NCBI GenBank assembly: GCA_023430885.1
Contig: JAEYYH010000026.1
Location: 19,599 to 83,598 of the forward strand
Length of the DNA stretch: 64,000 nt
Direction: 5' to 3'
Source: Bacillota bacterium
Lineage (GTDB): Bacteria > Bacillota_I > Bacilli_A > RF39 > UBA660
Of this stretch, positions 25,995-41,855 are shown piece after piece (positions within the stretch are counted from its first letter, which is position 1; each line of letters starts with the position of its first letter). The notes beneath the pieces were generated by a model. The model was not told where the DNA came from, did no database searches, and saw only the letters and a list, made by a program, of their open reading frames with translations. Made by a program: the position numbers and the translations under genes.

Positions 25995-27374
25995 ATGAAT
26001 TGTAATAAGTGTGGAACTCCAATTTTGCCAGGCGAAAACTCTTGTCGTTTTTGTGGTACTATTGGTGACTATTCAAAAAGAACTCATGAAGAAACAAAAC
26101 CAGAAATAATAGATTTTACTACAGGCGATGACGATGTAGTTATTATAGATGATGAACCAGAAAAAATAGAAAGTATACCAGTAATTAAACCTGTTAGTGC
26201 TCCAGTAGTGCCAACAATTTCAAGGCAAGAAATGGTAGCAGCCCCAGTCCAAATGCCAACGCCAGTAGTTAGAGAGACAGTAGTAAGTACTCCTACTCCT
26301 GCACCGACAGTATTACCAGTTAATAATACTGCTGTTCCTAAAGTGGAAATTCCTGTTAGTATTCCAACAGTTAGTATTCCAGTAGTTACTCCAATTGTTA
26401 GTGAACCAGTTCCAGCAGTTGTAAAGCAAGCTCCTGTTATTCCAATTGTTTCAAATATAGAAGCAGAACCAATTCCTGTAATTAAAAAGGAAGAAGTAAT
26501 TACTCCTATAGTAAAAACACAAATAGATAATCCAACAGTAGATCAAGCTACTCCAGTAGTTTCAGTAGAATCGAATTCAGTTCCTACTGCTGTTTCAGCG
26601 TCTACTCCAGTATTAGTTACAAAAACTGATTCAAAAGAATCAAAAGAAGATTTAATAAGTGAGATTGTAACTCCAGTTGTAGAAGATAAGAAAGAAGCTA
26701 AAGAAAAGAAGAACACTCATGGATTATTCAATATAGTAACTTTTATATTAATAGTATTATTATTAATTTCAGTAATAGCTAATTGCTTTTTACTAATGGG
26801 AAACAGTAAAGAAAATCAAGAGGTGGACGATACTCCAGTAGTTAGTACTACTAATCAAACTATATATTTTAATGGTTATAAAGTAGAAGTTCCAAGTAAT
26901 TGGATAACTACTACTAATAAAGATGTAAATTATATTACATTAATGGACAGCACTGAAAATTGGGCATTTACTTTAAATGTGGCACCAAATACTAATGCAA
27001 GTGCTATTAGTGATAAAACAAGTATTGAAAATATTACAAAGGCATTTGGATCTAACAAATATTTATTTACTAGTGATTATTCTAAAACAGTTGATGGTAA
27101 AGATTTTTATATATTTAAAGGTAAATATTATGACTATAGTGTATATATAATAACTTCAAGTTTAGATAGTACAAATGCAGTTATAGCCGATTTAAAGTTT
27201 AAGGGTGAAGTGGATGATGAAGTTTTAACTAATGTTTTAAGTTCATTAACTACATTAAGTATTAAAGATTTGACAACTTTTTATAAAAATGATTTTAGTT
27301 TTGGAGATATTGCTTCATTAGTAACAAGTAATATTAATGTACCAACTACTACAAATACAGGAGGAAATGAATAA
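25995..27374 (+). CDS. Zn-ribbon / Pro-Val-rich linker / single-TM / extracellular-domain protein (hypothetical, signalling-like topology)
   Basis: N-terminus CNKCGTPILPGENSCRFCG. About 130-aa P/V/T-rich linker. TM LFNIVTFILIVLLLISVIANCFLLM. About 190-aa extracellular domain. Confidence 0.45.
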   Translation: MNCNKCGTPILPGENSCRFCGTIGDYSKRTHEETKPEIIDFTTGDDDVVIIDDEPEKIESIPVIKPVSAPVVPTISRQEMVAAPVQMPTPVVRETVVSTPTPAPTVLPVNNTAVPKVEIPVSIPTVSIPVVTPIVSEPVPAVVKQAPVIPIVSNIEAEPIPVIKKEEVITPIVKTQIDNPTVDQATPVVSVESNSVPTAVSASTPVLVTKTDSKESKEDLISEIVTPVVEDKKEAKEKKNTHGLFNIVTFILIVLLLISVIANCFLLMGNSKENQEVDDTPVVSTTNQTIYFNGYKVEVPSNWITTTNKDVNYITLMDSTENWAFTLNVAPNTNASAISDKTSIENITKAFGSNKYLFTSDYSKTVDGKDFYIFKGKYYDYSVYIITSSLDSTNAVIADLKFKGEVDDEVLTNVLSSLTTLSIKDLTTFYKNDFSFGDIASLVTSNINVPTTTNTGGNE

Positions 27375-27406
27375 TTTCCTTTTTTTTATAATTTTTTAAA
27401 AGGTAT

Positions 27407-27435
27407 TGACTTTTTTTAGTATCTAATTTATAATT
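27407..27435 (+). promoter_or_regulatory. Consensus sigma-A promoter: TTGACT - 17 nt - TATAAT
   Basis: Perfect -35/-10 spacing, about 7 nt before the start of the first T-box leader. Confidence 0.6.
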
Positions 27436-27439
27436 ATGG

Positions 27440-27712
27440 ACATAGGCGTTGAAGAAACGAGTAATAATAACAACTAATTTGAGCGAGTTAGATATGGTGG
27501 AAGCTAACAATTAAGTTTATTATGAAGAACAGTTCGGAGCTATCTATTTGAACTATAGTAGAATAGATCGGTTGTAATCCGTTACCAAGTTACATGAGAG
27601 ATTATATATTACTATACTTTGTATAATGATATTTAATAATGTGGGTGGTACCGCGGATACAACAGTAATTCGTCCCTTTGTGGAATTTTGAAGTACTGTT
27701 TTTTTATTCGAA
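27440..27712 (+). promoter_or_regulatory. T-box riboswitch leader 1 (putative Asn specifier AAC) with intrinsic terminator
   Basis: Canonical T-box sequence AATGTGGGTGGTACCGCGG at about 27641-27657. Terminator hairpin about 27664-27700 plus T7 run. Stem I region AGTAATAATAACAACTAATTTGAGCGAG contains AAC. Confidence 0.7.
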
Positions 27713-27716
27713 TTTG

Positions 27717-27792
27717 CCTGATTAGCTCAGTTGGTAGAGCATCCGGCTGTTAACCGGCAGGTCGTAGGTCCGAGTCCTACATCAGGCGCCAT
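27717..27792 (+). tRNA. tRNA-Asn (anticodon GUU) with encoded CCA; atypical T-loop UCCGAGU (C at position 55)
   Basis: Cloverleaf folded by hand. Acceptor GCCTGAT/ATCAGGC, D-arm GCTC-AGTTGGTA-GAGC, anticodon loop CTGTTAA, T-arm GTAGG-TCCGAGT-CCTAC, discriminator G, then CCA. Confidence 0.75.
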
Positions 27793-28043
27793 TTTTATTT
27801 TATAAGCGATGATTAAGAGAGTAATAATATGACTAGTAAAAGCGAGTTAGGTATGGTGGAAGCTAACAACCAATAGTATTATGAAAAACACTTATGAGCT
27901 ATTATTCTGAAATAAAGTAAGTTTAATCGGTTTAACCCGTTATCAAGTTAGAGTGACTATAGAATTATTTTATAGTAATTTGGGTGGTACCGCGGATACA
28001 ACAGTAATTCGTCCCTACAGGGATTGAATACTGTTTTTTTTAT
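27793..28043 (+). promoter_or_regulatory. T-box riboswitch leader 2 (putative Asp GAC specifier), near-duplicate of leader 1, directly upstream of gatC
   Basis: T-box sequence AATTTGGGTGGTACCGCGG at about 27980-27996. Terminator ACAGTAATTCGTCCCT/AGGGATTGAATACTGT plus T8. Stem I region AGTAATAATATGACTAGTAAAAGCGAG. Confidence 0.7.
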
Positions 28044-28065
28044 ACATTAAAGGAGGGATAATATT

Positions 28066-28362
28066 ATGGCAAGATTTACTAAGGAAATGGTTGTAGATTA
28101 TGCAGATAAGTTATTAATTGGTTTGACAGAAGAAGAAGTGACAATGGTACTAGATGAGTTTGAGATAATAGATAAGAATATTGATTTAATAAATGTAATA
28201 CCAAATATTTCAAAGGTAGAGCCAATGACTCATTGTTTGGATAATTTCATTTATGAATTAAGAGAAGATATACCAGACGAATCAGTAGATATTGATGAAT
28301 TATTACAAAATTGTGATAGTTATTTAAATAGAGAAGTAAAAGTACCAAAGGTGGTGGAATAA
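28066..28362 (+). CDS. gatC: Asp/Glu-tRNA amidotransferase subunit C
   Basis: 98 aa, RBS AAGGAGGG, translationally coupled to gatA, typical GatC. Confidence 0.85.
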   Translation: MARFTKEMVVDYADKLLIGLTEEEVTMVLDEFEIIDKNIDLINVIPNISKVEPMTHCLDNFIYELREDIPDESVDIDELLQNCDSYLNREVKVPKVVE

Positions 28363-28363
28363 T

Positions 28364-29821
28364 ATGGAATATATGGGTAAAACTATTGAAGAAATTCATG
28401 AAGCAATATTAAATAAAGAAGTAACAGTAAAAGAATTAATTGACGAATCAATTAAAAAATCACATTCTGTTCAAGAAAAATGTAATGCTTTTGTAACAAT
28501 ATTAGATGATGCTAAAGAAGTAGAAGTAACTTCTGATTTTTTATCTGGTATACCCTATGGAGTTAAGGATAATTATAGTACTAAGGGTATACTAAGTACT
28601 GGATCTAGTAACACATTAAGAGACTATGTTCCATTTTTTACTGCAACAGCTATTGAAAATTTAGAAAAAGCTGGTGCTGTAGCAGTAAATAAAACTGTTT
28701 TAGATGAATTTGGTATGGGTGGAACAGGAACAACGGGGCATACAGGAATTGTAAGAAATCCATGGGATTTATCAAGAATGTGTGCTGGGTCATCTGCTGG
28801 ATCAGCAGCAGCAGTAGCAGCAGGTGTATATCCTTATGCTACCGGAAGCGATACCGGCGATTCCATTCGTAAACCAGCAGCATATTGTGGAATAGTTGGT
28901 TATAAACCAACATATGGCATGATATCTAGATACGGTTTATTTGCTTTTGCAAGCAGTTTAGACCACTGTGGAGTTTTGACTAGAACAGTAAAAGATGCAG
29001 CTATAGTAGTTGACAGTATGAAGGGTATAGACAAAAATGATATGACTAGTTGGGATTCAAGTAGTATTCAGTTATATAAATCAATTACTGGTGAAGTAAC
29101 TGGTAAAAAAATGTGCTATATCAAAGAAATATGTGATATAAATATGTATCCAAACGCTTCAGAAGAACTAAAAGAACATTTAAGTAATTTTAATAAAGTA
29201 TTAGATAAATGTAAACAACTAGGAATAGAAATAGAAGAGGTAAGTATTGATAAGAAATTACTTAATGCTGTTCCTTCTGTTTATGTAGTTATTTCTTGTG
29301 CTGAAGCAACTTCAAATATGTCTAATTTAACAGGTATTATTTTTGGACCTAGAGGTGAAGGCGATAATTATATCGATAAAATGAAAAACTATAGAACTGA
29401 AGGTTTTTCTCCATTAATTAAGAGAAGATTTGTAATAGGTTCATATGTTTTACAATCACAAAACAAAGATAGATATTTCCATAATGCTCAAAGAGTTAGA
29501 AGACTTTTAGTAGATGAATGGAATAAATTATTTGATAATTATGATGCAGTTATATTACCAGTAGGAAGTGGACCAGCTAAATATATAGATGGATCACAAA
29601 ATATGCTAGAAGAAAACACTGCTATTTTAGAAGAACACTTACAAGTTGGTAACTTTGGAGGATTTCCTTCAATTACAATTCCAGATGGATTTGTAAGTAA
29701 ATTACCAGTAGGTGTCAACATAACAGGTAAATGCTATGATGATGCCAACGTATTAAACATAGCTTATGCTTTAGAAAGTACAATGGATTATAAAAACCAA
29801 ATAGCTAAGGAGGTAAAATAA
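28364..29821 (+). CDS. gatA: Asp/Glu-tRNA amidotransferase subunit A (amidase)
   Basis: Amidase signature GGSSAGSAAAVAAG; Ser-cisSer-Lys family. Confidence 0.92.
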   Translation: MEYMGKTIEEIHEAILNKEVTVKELIDESIKKSHSVQEKCNAFVTILDDAKEVEVTSDFLSGIPYGVKDNYSTKGILSTGSSNTLRDYVPFFTATAIENLEKAGAVAVNKTVLDEFGMGGTGTTGHTGIVRNPWDLSRMCAGSSAGSAAAVAAGVYPYATGSDTGDSIRKPAAYCGIVGYKPTYGMISRYGLFAFASSLDHCGVLTRTVKDAAIVVDSMKGIDKNDMTSWDSSSIQLYKSITGEVTGKKMCYIKEICDINMYPNASEELKEHLSNFNKVLDKCKQLGIEIEEVSIDKKLLNAVPSVYVVISCAEATSNMSNLTGIIFGPRGEGDNYIDKMKNYRTEGFSPLIKRRFVIGSYVLQSQNKDRYFHNAQRVRRLLVDEWNKLFDNYDAVILPVGSGPAKYIDGSQNMLEENTAILEEHLQVGNFGGFPSITIPDGFVSKLPVGVNITGKCYDDANVLNIAYALESTMDYKNQIAKEVK

Positions 29822-31278
29822 TGGATAAATATAAAGTACTAATTGGTCTAGAAATGCACTGTGAAATAAGTGAAACGAAAACTAAAGTTTTCTCTAGTGC
29901 TAAAAACTTATATTGTGATGTGGCAAATAGTAACATTAGACCAGTAGATATGGCTTTTCCAGGAACTTTACCTGTCTTAAATAAAGAAGCTGTAAAAAAA
30001 TCATTAATGGCGAGTATGATACTTGGTTGTACTGTACCAGAATATATATACTTTGAAAGAAAAAATTATTATTATCCTGATTTACCAAAAGGTTATCAAA
30101 TTACTCAAGAAACAAAACCTGCTCCTGTAGGAATATATGGAGAGTTAAGATATGAGTGTGAAGGAGAATATAAAACTGTAAGAGTTAATAATATTCATTT
30201 AGAAGAAGATGCGGCTTCAACAGATCATTATTCAAGATATTCAACAATTGATTATAATAGAGCGGGAGTACCACTTCTTGAACTTGTTACTGAACCAGAT
30301 TTTCATTCAGCTATTGAAGCAGTTTCGTTTTTAGAAACAATGCGAACAATTTATCAATATGCTGGAATTAGTGAAGCTGATAGTAGAAAAGGTCAATTAA
30401 GATGTGATGTAAACGTATCTATTATGGATGTAGACAAAGATGATAAGAATCCTGAAAACTGGGGAACAAAAGTAGAAATAAAAAATATTAATTCTCTTGG
30501 CGGAGTAAGAGATGCCATTAATTACGAAGTAGCAAGACAAATTGAAGCAAAAGAAAACAATACTTATGATAAAATTGAGCAACAAACGAGAAGATGGGAC
30601 GAAGCAACTATGACTACTGTATATATGAGAAGTAAAGTAGATGCTATTGACTATAAATACTTTGTTGAGCCAAATATACCAAAGTTTAAGTTATCAAAAG
30701 AGTGGCTTGAAGAAATAAGAAATAGTATTCCTGTACTTGCAACCGCTCGAAAAGAGAAATATATAAATGAGTATGGTTTATCAGCTTATGATGCAACTAT
30801 ACTTGTTAAAGAAAAAAATATTTCTGATTTCTATGAAGAAACTATTAAATTAGGTGCTGATCCTAAAGTAAGTTCAAACTGGATGACTACTATGGTTTTA
30901 GGTCATTTAAATAAAGCTGAACTTGAATTAAAGGACATCTTTTTAACACCAACATATTTAGTAGAATTAATTAATTTAATAAATAGTGGAGAAATATCTT
31001 CAAAACAAAGTAAAGAAATTTTTTACAAGATGTTAGAAGAAAAGAAAGAACCTAAAAAACTTGTAAAAGAAATGGGAATGAAACAAATTGGTGATGAGTC
31101 TACATTAAGACCTATGATTATTGCAATTATAGAAGAACACTTAGAACTAATTGAGGAATATAGAAAAGGCAGAAATGTATTTGACTTTTTCGTAGGCCAA
31201 GTAATGAAGCAAACTCGTGGTCAAGCTAATCCAACATTAACAGCGCAAATAATTAAAGAAGAAATAGATAAAAGATAG
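29821..31278 (+). CDS. gatB: Asp/Glu-tRNA amidotransferase subunit B
   Basis: N-terminus IGLEMHCE and C-terminal YqeY-like helical domain; 485 aa. Confidence 0.92.
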   Translation: MDKYKVLIGLEMHCEISETKTKVFSSAKNLYCDVANSNIRPVDMAFPGTLPVLNKEAVKKSLMASMILGCTVPEYIYFERKNYYYPDLPKGYQITQETKPAPVGIYGELRYECEGEYKTVRVNNIHLEEDAASTDHYSRYSTIDYNRAGVPLLELVTEPDFHSAIEAVSFLETMRTIYQYAGISEADSRKGQLRCDVNVSIMDVDKDDKNPENWGTKVEIKNINSLGGVRDAINYEVARQIEAKENNTYDKIEQQTRRWDEATMTTVYMRSKVDAIDYKYFVEPNIPKFKLSKEWLEEIRNSIPVLATARKEKYINEYGLSAYDATILVKEKNISDFYEETIKLGADPKVSSNWMTTMVLGHLNKAELELKDIFLTPTYLVELINLINSGEISSKQSKEIFYKMLEEKKEPKKLVKEMGMKQIGDESTLRPMIIAIIEEHLELIEEYRKGRNVFDFFVGQVMKQTRGQANPTLTAQIIKEEIDKR

Positions 31279-31287
31279 GTGATATGA

Positions 31288-32664
31288 ATGAAAGATTCCA
31301 AAGAATTATATAGTACTTATAGTGATTTTATAGGTAAAGAAGTTACACTACAAGGATGGATTAAAAATCATCGTAAACAAAAAGAAATGGGCTTCATTGA
31401 ATTTAATGATGGAACATTTTTTAAGAGTGTTCAACTTATATATAATAGTAAATTAAGAAAATTTGAGGATATACAAAAATTACGTATTGGTAGTGCTATA
31501 ACTGTTGTTGGTACTGTTATAGAATCACCTAGAGAAGAGCAACCATTTGAAATAGCTGTTAAAGAAATTACTTTAGAAGGTGATTGTCCAGATGACTATC
31601 CAATTCAACCAAAGAGACACACTAGGGAATTTTTAAGAGAACAAGCTTATTTAAGACCTAGAACTAACTTATTTGGAGCGGTATTTAGAGTAAGAAGTGT
31701 AGTAGCAATGGCTATTCACTCATATTTTCAAGAAAGAGGATATGTCTATGTTCATGCACCAATAATTACAGGCAGTGATTGTGAAGGTGCAGGAGAAATG
31801 TTTCAAGTTACAACAATAAATGTTGATAAACTAGATGGTAAAGAAATAGATTACACAAAAGATTTCTTTGGTAAAAAAACAAGTCTTACCGTATCTGGTC
31901 AACTTCAAGGTGAAGCATTTGCAATGGCTTATAAAAAGATATATACATTTGGGCCGACTTTCAGAGCTGAAAACTCTAATACGAAAACACATGCTTCTGA
32001 ATTTTGGATGATTGAACCAGAAATAGCTTTTTGCGATTTAAATGGTTTAATGGATATAGAAGAAGATGTTTTAAAGTATATTATAAAATATACTTTAGAG
32101 CATGCTAAAGAAGAATTAGAATTTTTTGATAAATTTGTTGAATCTGGACTTATTAACAAATTAGAAAAAGTAGTAAGTTCAAAAGCAGCTAGAATCACTC
32201 ATAAAGAAGCTATTAAGATATTATTGAAGTCTGGTAAAGACTTTGAAAATAAACCAGCTTATGGTGAAGATCTTGCTACTGAACATGAAAAATATTTAAC
32301 AGGAGAACATTTTAATAGTCCAGTATTTGTTTGCGATTGGCCAAAAGATATAAAAGCATTTTATATGCGCATGAATGATGATAAAGAAACAGTTGCAGCT
32401 GTAGATTTATTAGTGCCAGGATCAGGAGAACTTATGGGTGGTTCTCAAAGAGAAGAAAGAATAGATTTAATGATTGATAGAATGAAAAAACTTGGTATAG
32501 ATGCTAGTGAAATGGATTGGTATCTTAACTTAAGAAAATTTGGTGGCTGCAAGCACAGTGGATTTGGTATGGGATTTGAGCGCTTACTTATTTATATAAC
32601 AGGTGTTGAAAATATTAGAGATGTTATACCTTTCCCAAGAACTCCAAAAAATTGTGAATTTTAA
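31288..32664 (+). CDS. asnS: Asparaginyl-tRNA synthetase
   Basis: Class IIb with N-terminal OB fold. SGQL (rather than the Asp-type QSPQ) and FGPTFRAENSNTKTHASEFWMIEPE match AsnRS. 458 aa, no GAD insertion. Confidence 0.85.
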   Translation: MKDSKELYSTYSDFIGKEVTLQGWIKNHRKQKEMGFIEFNDGTFFKSVQLIYNSKLRKFEDIQKLRIGSAITVVGTVIESPREEQPFEIAVKEITLEGDCPDDYPIQPKRHTREFLREQAYLRPRTNLFGAVFRVRSVVAMAIHSYFQERGYVYVHAPIITGSDCEGAGEMFQVTTINVDKLDGKEIDYTKDFFGKKTSLTVSGQLQGEAFAMAYKKIYTFGPTFRAENSNTKTHASEFWMIEPEIAFCDLNGLMDIEEDVLKYIIKYTLEHAKEELEFFDKFVESGLINKLEKVVSSKAARITHKEAIKILLKSGKDFENKPAYGEDLATEHEKYLTGEHFNSPVFVCDWPKDIKAFYMRMNDDKETVAAVDLLVPGSGELMGGSQREERIDLMIDRMKKLGIDASEMDWYLNLRKFGGCKHSGFGMGFERLLIYITGVENIRDVIPFPRTPKNCEF

Positions 32665-32675
32665 GAGGTGATAAA

Positions 32676-34418
32676 ATGAAAGGTAATAAATATAGAACAG
32701 TCTACTGTGGTAAAGTTACTAAAGAAGATATTGGTAAGGTTATAAGAATAGCCGGCTTTGTTGAAAATATTAGAGACCATGGTGGTATTATATTTGTTGA
32801 TATCAGAGACGAATCTGGAAGTATTCAAACAGTAAGTAATGATGAAAAGATTTTTGATCATATTACACGTGAATCATCAATAACACTACTTGGTACTGTT
32901 AGACTTAGATCAGAAGATACAATAAATAACAGACTAGCTACAGGTGAGTTAGAATTACTAGTAACAGAACTTGAGGTTCTTGGCAAAGCTAACAACGAAC
33001 TTCCTTTTGAAATAATGACTTCAAAAGATGTTAAAGAAGATATAAGATTAAAATATAGATATTTAGATTTAAGAAATGAAAAAGTACATGAAAACATAGT
33101 ATTTAGATCTAAAGTAATATCACATTTAAGAGAAAAAATGAGTAGTATGGGATTTTTAGAAATACAAACTCCAATTTTAACTTGTTCTTCTCCAGAAGGA
33201 GCTAGAGATTATATAGTTCCATCAAGAATATATCATGGTAAATTTTATGCATTACCACAAGCTCCACAAATGTTTAAACAATTACTTATGGTAAGCGGTT
33301 TTGATAGATATTTTCAAATAGCACCTTGTTTTAGAGACGAAGATGCTAGAGCAGATCGTGCTCCAGGTGAATTTTATCAATTAGATTTTGAAATGGCCTT
33401 TGCAGAAGCAGAAGATGTTTATGCTGTTGCTGAAGAGGTTCTATATGATACATTTACTAAATTTAGTACTAAAGAAGTTAGTAGTAAACCATTTAGAAGA
33501 ATATCATATGCAGAGTCAATGTTAAAATATGGAACAGATAAGCCCGATTTAAGAAATCCTTTAGAGATAATTGATCTAACTGAAGTGTTTGCTGATACTA
33601 CATTTAAACCATTTGCAAATACTATCATAAGAGGTATAGCGGTAGATGATATAGGAACTAAATCAAACTCATGGTTTAATGATTTAGTTGATTATGCTAA
33701 GACACTTGGTATGCCAGGAATTGGTTATGTAACACTAATGGAAGATGGTACTTTAAAAGGACCTATTGATAAGTTTTTATCTGAAGAAGAAAGAGATTTA
33801 TTAATATCTAAAGCTAATTTAAAAACAAACAGTGTATTATTTTTTATCGCTGATAAGAAAAAGGCTCCAACTTTAGCGGGTTTTATAAGAAGTGAACTTG
33901 GAAGAAGATTAGAAATAATTGATAATAGTAAATTTGAGTTTTGCTTTATTGTGGATTTTCCTATGTATGAATGGGATGAAGAAGAAGACAAATACGTCTT
34001 TACACATAATCCTTTCTCAATGCCACAAGGTGGTATGAATGATCTATTAAATAAAAAACCAGAAGATATCCTTGCATATCAATACGATATAGTATGTAAC
34101 GGTGTTGAATTATCTAGCGGTGCTGTTAGAAATCATGATTTAGATATAATGGAAAAAGCTTTTTCAATAGCTGGATATTCTAAAGATGAATTAGAAAGAC
34201 GCTTCAAAGCTTTATATACAGCATTTCATTACGGTGCTCCACCACATGCTGGTATGGCTCCTGGTATTGATAGAATGATAATGCTTTTAAAAGAAGAAGA
34301 AAGTATTCGTGAAGTAATTGCATTCCCAATGAGTAGCAGTGCTCAAGATTTAATGATGGGATCACCTAGTGATGTAACAGAACAGCAATTAAGAGATGTT
34401 CATATTAAGATAAGATAA
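32676..34418 (+). CDS. aspS: Aspartyl-tRNA synthetase, bacterial type with GAD insertion domain
   Basis: LPQAPQMFKQLLMVSG, FRDED, GAPPHAGMAPGIDRMIMLL. 580 aa. Confidence 0.9.
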   Translation: MKGNKYRTVYCGKVTKEDIGKVIRIAGFVENIRDHGGIIFVDIRDESGSIQTVSNDEKIFDHITRESSITLLGTVRLRSEDTINNRLATGELELLVTELEVLGKANNELPFEIMTSKDVKEDIRLKYRYLDLRNEKVHENIVFRSKVISHLREKMSSMGFLEIQTPILTCSSPEGARDYIVPSRIYHGKFYALPQAPQMFKQLLMVSGFDRYFQIAPCFRDEDARADRAPGEFYQLDFEMAFAEAEDVYAVAEEVLYDTFTKFSTKEVSSKPFRRISYAESMLKYGTDKPDLRNPLEIIDLTEVFADTTFKPFANTIIRGIAVDDIGTKSNSWFNDLVDYAKTLGMPGIGYVTLMEDGTLKGPIDKFLSEEERDLLISKANLKTNSVLFFIADKKKAPTLAGFIRSELGRRLEIIDNSKFEFCFIVDFPMYEWDEEEDKYVFTHNPFSMPQGGMNDLLNKKPEDILAYQYDIVCNGVELSSGAVRNHDLDIMEKAFSIAGYSKDELERRFKALYTAFHYGAPPHAGMAPGIDRMIMLLKEEESIREVIAFPMSSSAQDLMMGSPSDVTEQQLRDVHIKIR

Positions 34419-34643: not shown

Positions 34644-34916
34644 ATGTCAAAAACTGATTTAGTAAACTATATTGCAGAAGAAACAGGATTAACAAAAGCT
34701 GATTCAGCAAGAGCTTTAGAAGCTTTCGTTGGAGGAGTAACAGAAGGTCTTAAAAAAGAAGGTAAAGTTACTTTAACTGGTTTCGCTACTTTCACTGCTA
34801 AGAAAAAAGCAGCAAAAACAGGACGTAATCCTCGTACTGGTGAAGCTGTAGCTATTCCTGCAAGAGTTGCTGTAACTGTTAAAGCTGGTTCTAAATTAAA
34901 AGACGCTTTAAACTAA
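34644..34916 (+). CDS. hup: DNA-binding protein HU
   Basis: MSKTDLVNYIAEETGLTKAD...GFATF...RNPRTGE, 90 aa. Confidence 0.9.
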   Translation: MSKTDLVNYIAEETGLTKADSARALEAFVGGVTEGLKKEGKVTLTGFATFTAKKKAAKTGRNPRTGEAVAIPARVAVTVKAGSKLKDALN

Positions 34917-34920
34917 TTTT

Positions 34921-34947
34921 AAAAAAAGGCTTTTCCGCCTTTTTTTC
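34921..34947 (+). terminator. Rho-independent terminator after hup
   Basis: AAAAAAAGGCTTTTCCGCCTTTTTTT. Confidence 0.55.
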
Positions 34948-34964
34948 ATGTGAGGAGGGATAAC

Positions 34965-36068
34965 TTGTTTAATATTTCACTTAAGATACTAGAAAAAATA
35001 GAACAAACCGGATTTGAAGCATATATAGTTGGTGGATTTGCAAGAGATAATTACATAGGACGTAATAGTACTGATGTAGATATATGTACAAATGCAACTC
35101 CAAAAGAACTAAAAAATATTTTTCAAGGAAGTATGCTTCCAAAAGAACAATATGGTTCAGTTGCCGTCATATATAAGAAAATTAGATTTGATATAACAAC
35201 TTATCGTAAAGATATAAAATATCAGAATAATAGATTACCTGTTGAAATAAAATACATAAATAATTTAGAGGATGATTTGAAAAGAAGAGACTTTACTATG
35301 AATACACTTTGTATTGATAAAGAAGGAAATTATATAGACCTATTAAATGCTAGAGCTGATATTGATAAAAAGATTATAAAAACTGTAGGAAATGCTAAAG
35401 AAAAACTAAATGAAGATTCACTTAGAATACTTCGTGCCATTAGATTTGCAACTATACTTGATTTTGAATTAGATGAAGAATTAAAGCAAGCTATAAAAGA
35501 ATATGGCTATTTATTAAAGAAACTATCTTATTTTAGAAAAAAGGAAGAATTAGACAAGATTTTTAGCAGTATTAATGTTAAACGTGGTATAAAGTTATTA
35601 CTTGAATTTGATCTTGATAAGTATTTAGATTTAAACAATTTAGATAAAATAATTATCACATCATCGCCTTTAGCAATATGGGCACAGTTGGATGTTTTAA
35701 ATACATATAGTTTTTCAAATATTGAAAAATGTTCAATAGAAACAATAAATATATTGAAAACAAATATGTCGTTTGATAACTACGAGCTATATACTTATGG
35801 ATTATATTTGACTTCTTTAGTTGCAGAAATTAATAATATTGATAAAACTTTATTAACAAAAAGGTATATGAGTCTTCCTATAAAAAACAAAAGAGATATA
35901 GTGATTGATGGTGCTGAAATATGTAATGTTCTTAATATAAAACCATCAAAGATTATAAAAGAAATAATAGAGGATTTAGAGAAGAAAATCATTCATGGGC
36001 AACTAGAAAATGACAAAAATCTTATAATTAATTATATTAAAAAGAATTATTCTGGAAGAGTTGAATAA
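34965..36068 (+). CDS. cca: CCA-adding tRNA nucleotidyltransferase; TTG start after RBS GAGGAGGG (the track's 34950 start lies inside the hup terminator)
   Basis: GGFARD motif, nucleotidyltransferase head plus HD-less Firmicute-type tail. Confidence 0.8.
   Translation: MFNISLKILEKIEQTGFEAYIVGGFARDNYIGRNSTDVDICTNATPKELKNIFQGSMLPKEQYGSVAVIYKKIRFDITTYRKDIKYQNNRLPVEIKYINNLEDDLKRRDFTMNTLCIDKEGNYIDLLNARADIDKKIIKTVGNAKEKLNEDSLRILRAIRFATILDFELDEELKQAIKEYGYLLKKLSYFRKKEELDKIFSSINVKRGIKLLLEFDLDKYLDLNNLDKIIITSSPLAIWAQLDVLNTYSFSNIEKCSIETINILKTNMSFDNYELYTYGLYLTSLVAEINNIDKTLLTKRYMSLPIKNKRDIVIDGAEICNVLNIKPSKIIKEIIEDLEKKIIHGQLENDKNLIINYIKKNYSGRVE

Positions 36069-39780: not shown

Positions 39781-41855
<2,075 letters not shown>

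Follow-up and report, generated by a model that had tools for sequence, protein, structure and literature searches.

How can a tRNA gene be placed under an element that senses the very tRNA it encodes, and what would such a circuit do? This question is raised by a locus in a 64,000-nucleotide (nt) stretch of an RF39-lineage Bacillota genome (contig JAEYYH010000026.1), hereafter the window, where a tRNA-Asn gene lies between two T-box leaders, upstream of gatCAB, asnS and aspS. As textbook sensors of tRNA charging, T-boxes control genes for aminoacyl-tRNA synthetases, biosynthesis and transporters. An initial annotation of the window listed these elements and proposed that the two leaders read two different tRNAs. 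The elements were all recovered by Rfam, ARAGORN, a promoter scan, folding and NCBIfam, but the proposed logic was not. Our analysis identifies both leaders as asparagine T-boxes, and makes it probable that they act as two successive Asn-specific attenuators within one transcription unit. All positions below are those of the window, and all features are on the + strand.

Two T-box leaders flank a tRNA-Asn gene

The RF00230 covariance model of Rfam, whose gathering score is 93, calls both leaders over its full length (model positions 1-219). Leader 1 extends from Stem I to the antiterminator at 27440-27680 (117.0 bits, E=3e-25), and leader 2 covers the same elements at 27800-28019 (131.1 bits, E=8e-29). 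Between them ARAGORN places a tRNA-Asn gene with a GUU anticodon (GTT in the DNA) at 27716-27791, which the Rfam tRNA model also finds (27716-27788, 68.4 bits). This gene has the complete cloverleaf and, by analysis of its acceptor end, a G1-C72 pair, the discriminator base G73 and an encoded CCA, 8 nt beyond which the model match of leader 2 begins. The two T-boxes and this tRNA are the only three Rfam matches above gathering thresholds in the whole 64-kb window. Both leaders contain the GA/K-turn base of Stem I, the Specifier Loop (S-turn GAA, codon and purine), the AG bulge and the distal loop. Their 5' ends, T-box sequences and terminators had been described as near-identical, and this is visible in an alignment of one leader to the other.

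The T-box sequence GGGTGGTACCGCGG is found at 27643-27656 in leader 1, with its UGGU bulge at 27646-27649, and at 27982-27995 in leader 2, where the covariance alignment (cmscan) places it as well. Through GGGUGGUACCGCGG, present in both leaders, the variable base of the UGGN bulge is a U that would face G73 of the tRNA in a U•G wobble. In the leaders surveyed below this base is U in 67 and C in 54, and all downstream tRNA-Asn genes have G73, so that either base is compatible with the tRNA encoded downstream. The antiterminator of both leaders is aligned by the covariance model. The ACAACAGUAAUUCGUCCC strand is shared by the terminator hairpins, antiterminator and terminator are mutually exclusive, and the hairpin is followed by U7 in leader 1 or U8 in leader 2. 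The leader 1 terminator (27661-27706) consists of a hairpin at 27661-27700 and a U-run at 27699-27706, folds at -16.2 kcal/mol as a 70-nt segment, and is kept in relatives. That of leader 2 (28000-28041) has its hairpin at 28000-28035 and its U8 at 28034-28041, with a folding energy of -18.8 kcal/mol (z = -2.5).

Both leaders carry an asparagine specifier

The specifier codon of a T-box is part of the 3' side of the Stem I Specifier Loop, and is followed directly by a conserved purine and by the loop-closing helix. The T-box database TBDB applies the identical rule for placing specifiers. On that side of the loop, where the model consensus is GAAauuca, leader 1 reads GAA-G-AAC-A (GAAGAACA, 27524-27531) and leader 2 reads GAA-A-AAC-A (GAAAAACA, 27883-27890). 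The specifier is thereby AAC, for asparagine, at 27528-27530 in leader 1 and at 27887-27889 in leader 2, in an invariant column of the alignment.

Minimum free energy folding of Stem I alone did not reproduce the canonical Stem I (z ~0). Since Stem I is A+U-rich and dependent on tertiary motifs, the assignment was based instead on the covariance-model alignment and on covariation. The Stem I regions of 23 leaders, taken from the window and from 19 related loci, were aligned, and base pairs were counted for the Rfam-derived structure. Standard pairs occupy 93% of the cells, compared with 30-48% after a shift of the 3' partners by 1-3 columns; compensatory changes on both sides occur in 16 of the 20 pairs, and none of 500 shuffles matched the covariation score. 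The two helices that enclose the Specifier Loop reach 96.5% and 97.1% pairing and show many compensatory changes. Between them the sequence GAA-N-AAC-R is invariant except for N, so that AAC is found in 23/23 leaders; UGA, AGUA, AGNGAG and GGUG are the other invariant motifs of the alignment. In the wider survey an Asn codon occupies the specifier position in 121/121 leaders among the matches listed, 117 of them with AAC. By these alignments, both leaders are Asn T-boxes.

A specifier can, in principle, overlap a second codon. Under such a dual reading, leader 1 would combine GAA (Glu) with AAC and leader 2 would combine AAA (Lys) with AAC, so that different second tRNAs would be integrated by the two leaders. 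The motif GAAC is indeed present in leader 1 of the window and of its close relative L013, and the T-box of the transamidation operon of Clostridium acetobutylicum is reported, according to papers that cite the original work, to bind both tRNA-Asn and tRNA-Glu through overlapping codons. However, the base that would create the second codon is not conserved. In leader 1, the window, L013 and L121 have G there, and L093 and L097 have A; in leader 2, the window has A, and L121 and L122 have G. Of the 121 leaders, 82 have T at this position, 24 have A, 10 have G and one has C, and the commonest form, UAAC, provides no second sense codon. The overlapping GAA, whose conservation defines the two-codon 'NT-box' class, is not conserved here. 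We therefore consider a dual reading unlikely, and take AAC as the codon sensed by both leaders.

Probable transcription through the tRNA gene

Whether the two asparagine T-boxes form one unit depends on how leader 2 is reached. They could instead belong to two independent units, in which the first promoter serves T-box 1 and the tRNA-Asn gene, and a promoter of its own, overlapping the tRNA gene or the spacer, serves T-box 2 and gatCAB. The region is A+T-rich and has weak -10-like hexamers (TATTTT at 27796-27801), and the only promoter-like match near the spacer, at 27799-27828, agrees with the consensus in 9/12 positions. That match, however, lies inside leader 2 and would initiate within Stem I, removing its 5' half, and is thus not a credible promoter for leader 2. 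The region as a whole has 7 promoter-like matches, fewer than the 10.1 expected from shuffles. Across four species the spacer between the tRNA and leader 2 is 8-12 nt long and A+T-rich, and contains no conserved hexamers. The initial annotation had likewise found no separate promoter for leader 2, and we detected no credible one in the 8-nt spacer of the window and none conserved across species. Moreover, in ~90 related operons gatC follows ~60 nt after the last tRNA with no T-box in between, which argues for co-transcription with the tRNAs; at L045, a scan predicted no promoter from the start of the tRNA-Ile gene to gatC. Two independent units are accordingly improbable, even more so than the dual-codon reading, and, as judged from the DNA, readthrough of leader 1 and of the tRNA gene is most likely the only route to leader 2.

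The promoter in front of leader 1 is a sigma-A-type promoter (TTGACT-17-TATAAT, 27406-27434) that matched the consensus in 11/12 positions, and its hexamers and 17-nt spacing are kept in L120, L121, L013, L093 and L097. Just upstream, at the end of the preceding open reading frame (ORF; 25995-27374), the sequence has a terminator-like hairpin, GGAAAT/ATTTCC followed by T8 (27363-27387). This hairpin and its T-run are also present in L120, L121, L013 and L093, and would insulate the unit from upstream transcription.

One amino acid is probably sensed twice

The differing codons proposed at first (Asn in leader 1, Asp or Thr in leader 2) would have made the locus an AND gate responding to two uncharged tRNAs. 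This proposal drew on AAUAACAACUAAU and AAUAUGACUAGU as the candidate specifier regions; AACAAC and AUGACU can indeed be found in the two Stem I regions, each in the 5' half, and the operon has aspS as well as asnS. However, these bases (alignment columns 34-40) fall outside the Specifier Loop, in an internal loop of upper Stem I, on its 5' strand, and the GAC site of leader 2 reads TAC, GAC and AAC in three orthologues. At the canonical position, by the Rfam alignment and covariation, both leaders have AAC followed by a purine, and an Asn codon stands there in all relatives. The specifiers being identical, the gate on tRNA-Asn and tRNA-Asp is refuted, and we give it almost no credence. The initial annotation had held that identical codons unrelated to Asn or Asp would overturn its reading: the codons are indeed identical, but they are not unrelated, both encoding Asn.

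An old duplication of the leader

A survey of related genomes for the order T-box - tRNA - T-box, which had been suggested as a check, recovered it in L013, L093, L097, L120 and L121. Among the matches listed in our species-level survey, only L013, L093 and L097 share this form with the window, and in all four species genomes both leaders exceed the Rfam threshold. In L013 and L093 GatC is 95-97% identical to that of the window, and a spoIVA-ORF-ORF order upstream is common to them; L097 is more distant (GatC 80% identical). Metagenome contigs encoding a GatC identical to the window's have the same architecture with a varying number of tRNA-Asn genes between the T-boxes, one in L120, at least two in L121 (1753-1985, across a scaffold gap) and at least three in L122 (1-218).

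In a tree of the leaders, the leader-1 copies form one clade (78-98% identity) and the leader-2 copies its sister clade (81-98%), whereas the two leaders within one genome are 62-70% identical (~65% in the window). This pattern indicates a single duplication before the species diverged, with both copies retained since, and rules out concerted evolution or a recent duplication of the leader. The lineage of the window would thus have duplicated its leader once, the copy coming to lie between the tRNA array and gatC. That one leader is a non-functional duplicate, or the duplication an artefact of assembly, is very hard to accept: although a 34-nt stretch (the T-box sequence and the 5' half of the terminator) is identical in both leaders and some assemblies break at the repeat, both leaders are full-length in four species genomes, AAC, terminator and U-run are kept in each, the divergence of the copies relative to that of orthologues is as expected if both have been under constraint since an old duplication, and the architecture occurs in six independent assemblies, the window and five others (L013, L093, L097, L120 and L121). 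The broken assemblies are the contigs L124 and L125, which begin 80 nt before gatC, probably at the repeated T-box.

A single T-box before tRNA-Asn is widespread

The double T-box of the window is a minor, lineage-specific elaboration of a wider arrangement. Taking one genome per species, we searched for T-box sequences with a tRNA-Asn anticodon arm 65-95 nt further downstream. At least 119 species genomes matched, almost all of them metagenome-assembled genomes of uncultured gut Bacilli, 'Tenericutes' or Erysipelotrichaceae, and Rfam recognised a full-length T-box in 18/18 sampled loci (117-142 bits). The finding is therefore broader than first supposed: in the literature that could be searched, no description of the exact sandwich was found, but its core, T-box - tRNA-Asn - gatCAB, is shared by these species.

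Downstream genes were counted in those 98 loci whose sequence extends 800 nt or more beyond the T-box. In 97 of them tRNA-Asn directly follows the terminator, as one copy (18 loci), two (57), three (11), four (10) or six (1). Behind the tRNAs come gatC(-gatA-gatB) with aspS and/or asnS in 91 loci, asnS in 5 and aspS in 1; the first gene begins a median of 62 nt after the last tRNA, and no second T-box intervenes. In 30 loci a tRNA-Glu gene, usually preceded by tRNA-Ile, ends 10-25 nt upstream of the leader, which places the T-box inside a tRNA operon. At L045 (4135-4908), for example, the only predicted promoter precedes tRNA-Ile, and none was found from tRNA-Glu to the T-box. As far as gene order can tell, an Asn T-box gating tRNA-Asn ahead of transamidation genes is common in this part of the tree, and the ancestral, widespread form is a promoter (or tRNA-Ile-tRNA-Glu) followed by T-box(Asn), one to six tRNA-Asn genes and gatCAB-(asnS/aspS).

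Loci of the single T-box type include L045, L108 and L014, and complete chromosomes among the metagenome-assembled genomes (OZ007022.1, OZ007025.1 and OZ007038.1) have this type as well. The tRNA arrays usually consist of two tRNA-Asn isodecoders that differ in their acceptor stems and stand in a fixed order, GCUCAAU... before GCCUGAU... (32 loci; for instance L001, 386-537), and identical isodecoder copies recur across loci, 27 and 23 times in the survey. At L082, ~1.3 kb separate the last tRNA-Asn from gatC, as compared with ~60 nt elsewhere.

In a second scan, metagenomes were examined for T-box sequences that precede a tRNA with A, C or U as the first anticodon base. It gave 34 matches (L126-L159), mostly on high-GC contigs, and a tRNA follows in 26 of them (Arg, Val, Ala and others). 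In these loci the 12-mer GGTGGNACCGCG stands 47-76 nt before tRNA genes, often those for tRNA-Arg. None of the 20 loci tested was called as a T-box by Rfam, and by a rough estimate ~30 chance co-occurrences of the 12-mer with nearby tRNA genes are expected; gating of non-Asn tRNAs in these loci was thus rejected as chance. The arrangement looks Asn-specific, the scan having covered anticodons with A, C or U in first position, not G34 tRNAs other than tRNA-Asn.

A two-step model of asparagine supply

How might two successive Asn-specific attenuators work within one unit? The elements, their order, codons, conservation and duplication history are taken from the locus and its relatives, and their behaviour in the cell is modelled here on the established T-box mechanism. 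Transcription would start at the promoter at 27406-27434 and, in leader 1, stop at ~27700 unless uncharged tRNA-Asn were bound. The GUU anticodon would pair with AAC, and the free G73-CCA end with the UGGU bulge, stabilising the antiterminator. Readthrough would produce tRNA-Asn, cut from the precursor by the normal tRNA-processing nucleases. Leader 2 would then repeat the test for uncharged tRNA-Asn, and gatCAB, asnS and aspS would be transcribed only afterwards. The initial annotation had already deduced that neither the tRNA nor attenuator 2 would be transcribed without readthrough of attenuator 1, and that the sensed tRNA would be self-produced; both points carry over into this model.

According to this model, the output of tRNA-Asn would track the readthrough probability of the first leader, p1, and that of the enzymes the product p1 x p2. 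The tRNA would therefore be induced at a milder shortage of Asn-tRNA, and the enzymes later and more steeply. Production of the ligand itself would be a positive feedback, while the induced AsnRS, AspRS and GatCAB would recharge the pool and close a negative loop. It is also conceivable that tRNA-dependent Asn synthesis explains the co-induction: tRNA-Asn would be its scaffold, and the remaining components of the pathway are encoded in the same operon. In a more general view, the tRNA, AsnRS and the indirect pathway would be raised together, giving more flux to Asn-tRNA-Asn when asparagine is scarce.

Several points weigh against this model or parts of it. Termination, readthrough and tRNA processing are all steps that we infer. 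A generic terminator scan reported no terminator in the A+U-rich leaders, a miss that we attribute to its requirement for at least three G-C pairs, as direct folding shows the hairpins and U-runs; the leader 1 terminator segment is, however, not significantly stabler than its shuffles (z = -1.2). A weak promoter overlapping the tRNA gene could have escaped analysis of the sequence. If the gated genes were the only tRNA-Asn genes of the genome, pure positive feedback would need some basal readthrough. The scaffold idea, in particular, is weakened by the tRNA itself. Bacterial GatCAB is reported to require U1-A72 in tRNA-Asn (PMC4206432), whereas the window tRNA and all 234 complete tRNA-Asn genes of related loci have G1-C72, together with G73 and an encoded CCA. 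The window tRNA-Asn thus lacks the GatCAB identity element reported for the substrate of the Asn-transamidosome (ND-AspRS and GatCAB). Five loci in which T-box - tRNA-Asn is followed by asnS without gatCAB also count against a scaffold role.

The operon and its neighbourhood

As had been described, leader 2 runs into gatCAB-asnS-aspS, and NCBIfam models match all five ORFs. The gatC gene (28066-28362) is preceded by a ribosome-binding site, AAGGAGGG, at 28050-28057, and matches TIGR00135 with 40.6 bits (E=2e-10), under the curated cut-off of 47.1; a Pfam GatC match, recorded on a protein identical to the window GatC, is also weak. It is followed by gatA (28364-29821; TIGR00132, 434 bits, cut-off 481), gatB (29821-31278; NF004012, 558 bits, over its cut-off), asnS for asparagine--tRNA ligase (31288-32664; NF003037, 643 bits) and aspS for a bacterial-type aspartate--tRNA ligase (32676-34418; NF001750, 750 bits). 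With GatC and GatA under the NCBIfam equivalog cut-offs and GatB over, the window GatCAB may represent a divergent clade.

Genes for HU and a CCA-adding enzyme lie 3' of the operon (34644-36068). The same HU-cca pair follows asnS in T-box - tRNA-Asn - asnS loci (L001 and L059), and the neighbourhood is thus conserved between the two locus types. In the gap between aspS and the HU gene, a simple terminator scan detected no terminator. The window has a G+C content of 29%, and spoIVA lies upstream of the operon, which marks the host as a spore-forming Firmicute. At 40374-41855 there is a gene for a class II aminoacyl-tRNA synthetase of 493 amino acids, probably lysS. It was the only paralogue, and a distant one, of the operon genes found in the window, and Rfam detected no T-box upstream of it.

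Implications

What would it mean for T-boxes to gate the genes of their own ligand? Having the sensed tRNA among the regulated products would add positive autoregulation to a system that is usually described as a negative feedback. The survey further suggests that many small-genome gut Bacilli co-regulate the copy number and expression of tRNA-Asn with transamidation genes, which bears on how asparagine supply is balanced against tRNA pools, and the presence of G1-C72 tRNA-Asn in gatCAB operons raises the question of how GatCAB recognises it. We are evenly divided on a broader reading, in which T-boxes gating the genes of their own ligand form an undescribed but widespread regulatory class (at least 119 species, some of the loci inside tRNA operons), seemingly specific to tRNA-Asn. 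In that reading the tRNA would be an inducible part of asparagine supply along with gatCAB, aspS and asnS, the lineage of the window would have a two-tier version with separate thresholds for tRNA and enzymes, and its GatCAB clade may follow a non-canonical identity rule for tRNA-Asn.

A literature search found neither a T-box upstream of a tRNA gene nor a T-box - tRNA - gatCAB operon, most subscription papers being outside its reach. The phrase 'tRNA gene' does not occur in a 2020 review of T-boxes, and Wels et al. (2008) report an absence of T-boxes in front of amidotransferase genes in the genome set of that study. T-boxes with their own ligand tRNA as regulated product, and tandem T-boxes that encode a product between their units, thus provisionally appear to be undescribed. 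The mode of action of tandem T-boxes was called unknown in a 2020 review. A tandem with an output between its units may offer a handle on it, the tRNA reporting p1 and the mRNA p1 x p2 from the same transcript.

Comparison with known systems

Each feature of the locus has a counterpart among known systems. Tandem T-box leaders occur in front of thrZ in Bacillus subtilis and of some trp operons. Like these, the window has complete units of the same specificity in series, each with its own terminator, which presumably multiply their readthrough probabilities; the two units are complete, a promoter between them was not detected, and we infer that the transcript is continuous. In known tandems, however, the units are adjacent and the downstream mRNA is the sole output, whereas here the ligand tRNA is encoded between them and gives unit 1 an output of its own. 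Co-transcription of tRNA genes with a protein gene is also familiar, from thrU-tyrU-glyT-thrT-tufB of Escherichia coli. There, as proposed here, tRNAs and mRNA come from one precursor and are parted by tRNA-processing nucleases, but those operons, unlike the window, are not known to be under the control of a riboswitch for the same tRNA.

Serial attenuators on one leader are known from tandem riboswitches that act as logic gates, such as the AND gate made of a T box with a riboswitch for ppGpp (PMC5912903). That gate has two ligands, whereas the leaders of the window have one, so that the signal would be sharpened or staged and a two-input function would not arise.

The closest relative of the locus is the aspS-gatCAB operon of C. 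acetobutylicum, which, according to papers citing Saad et al. (JBC 2012, PNAS 2013), is controlled by a T-box(Asn) named the 'NT-box'. As described in these papers, it is likewise a terminator/antiterminator T-box with an Asn specifier before gatCAB and aspS, and it belongs to the class with an 8-nt Specifier Loop, sharing the GAAC motif with leader 1 of the window. The overlapping GAA of its two-codon (Asn/Glu) loop is not conserved among the relatives of the window. To the extent that the same papers describe that unit, it has a single T-box and no tRNA gene inside it. Compared with their account, the window adds a tRNA-Asn gene behind T-box 1, a second complete T-box, and asnS within the operon. 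Its components are all standard T-box and tRNA elements, and what appears to be new is their arrangement.

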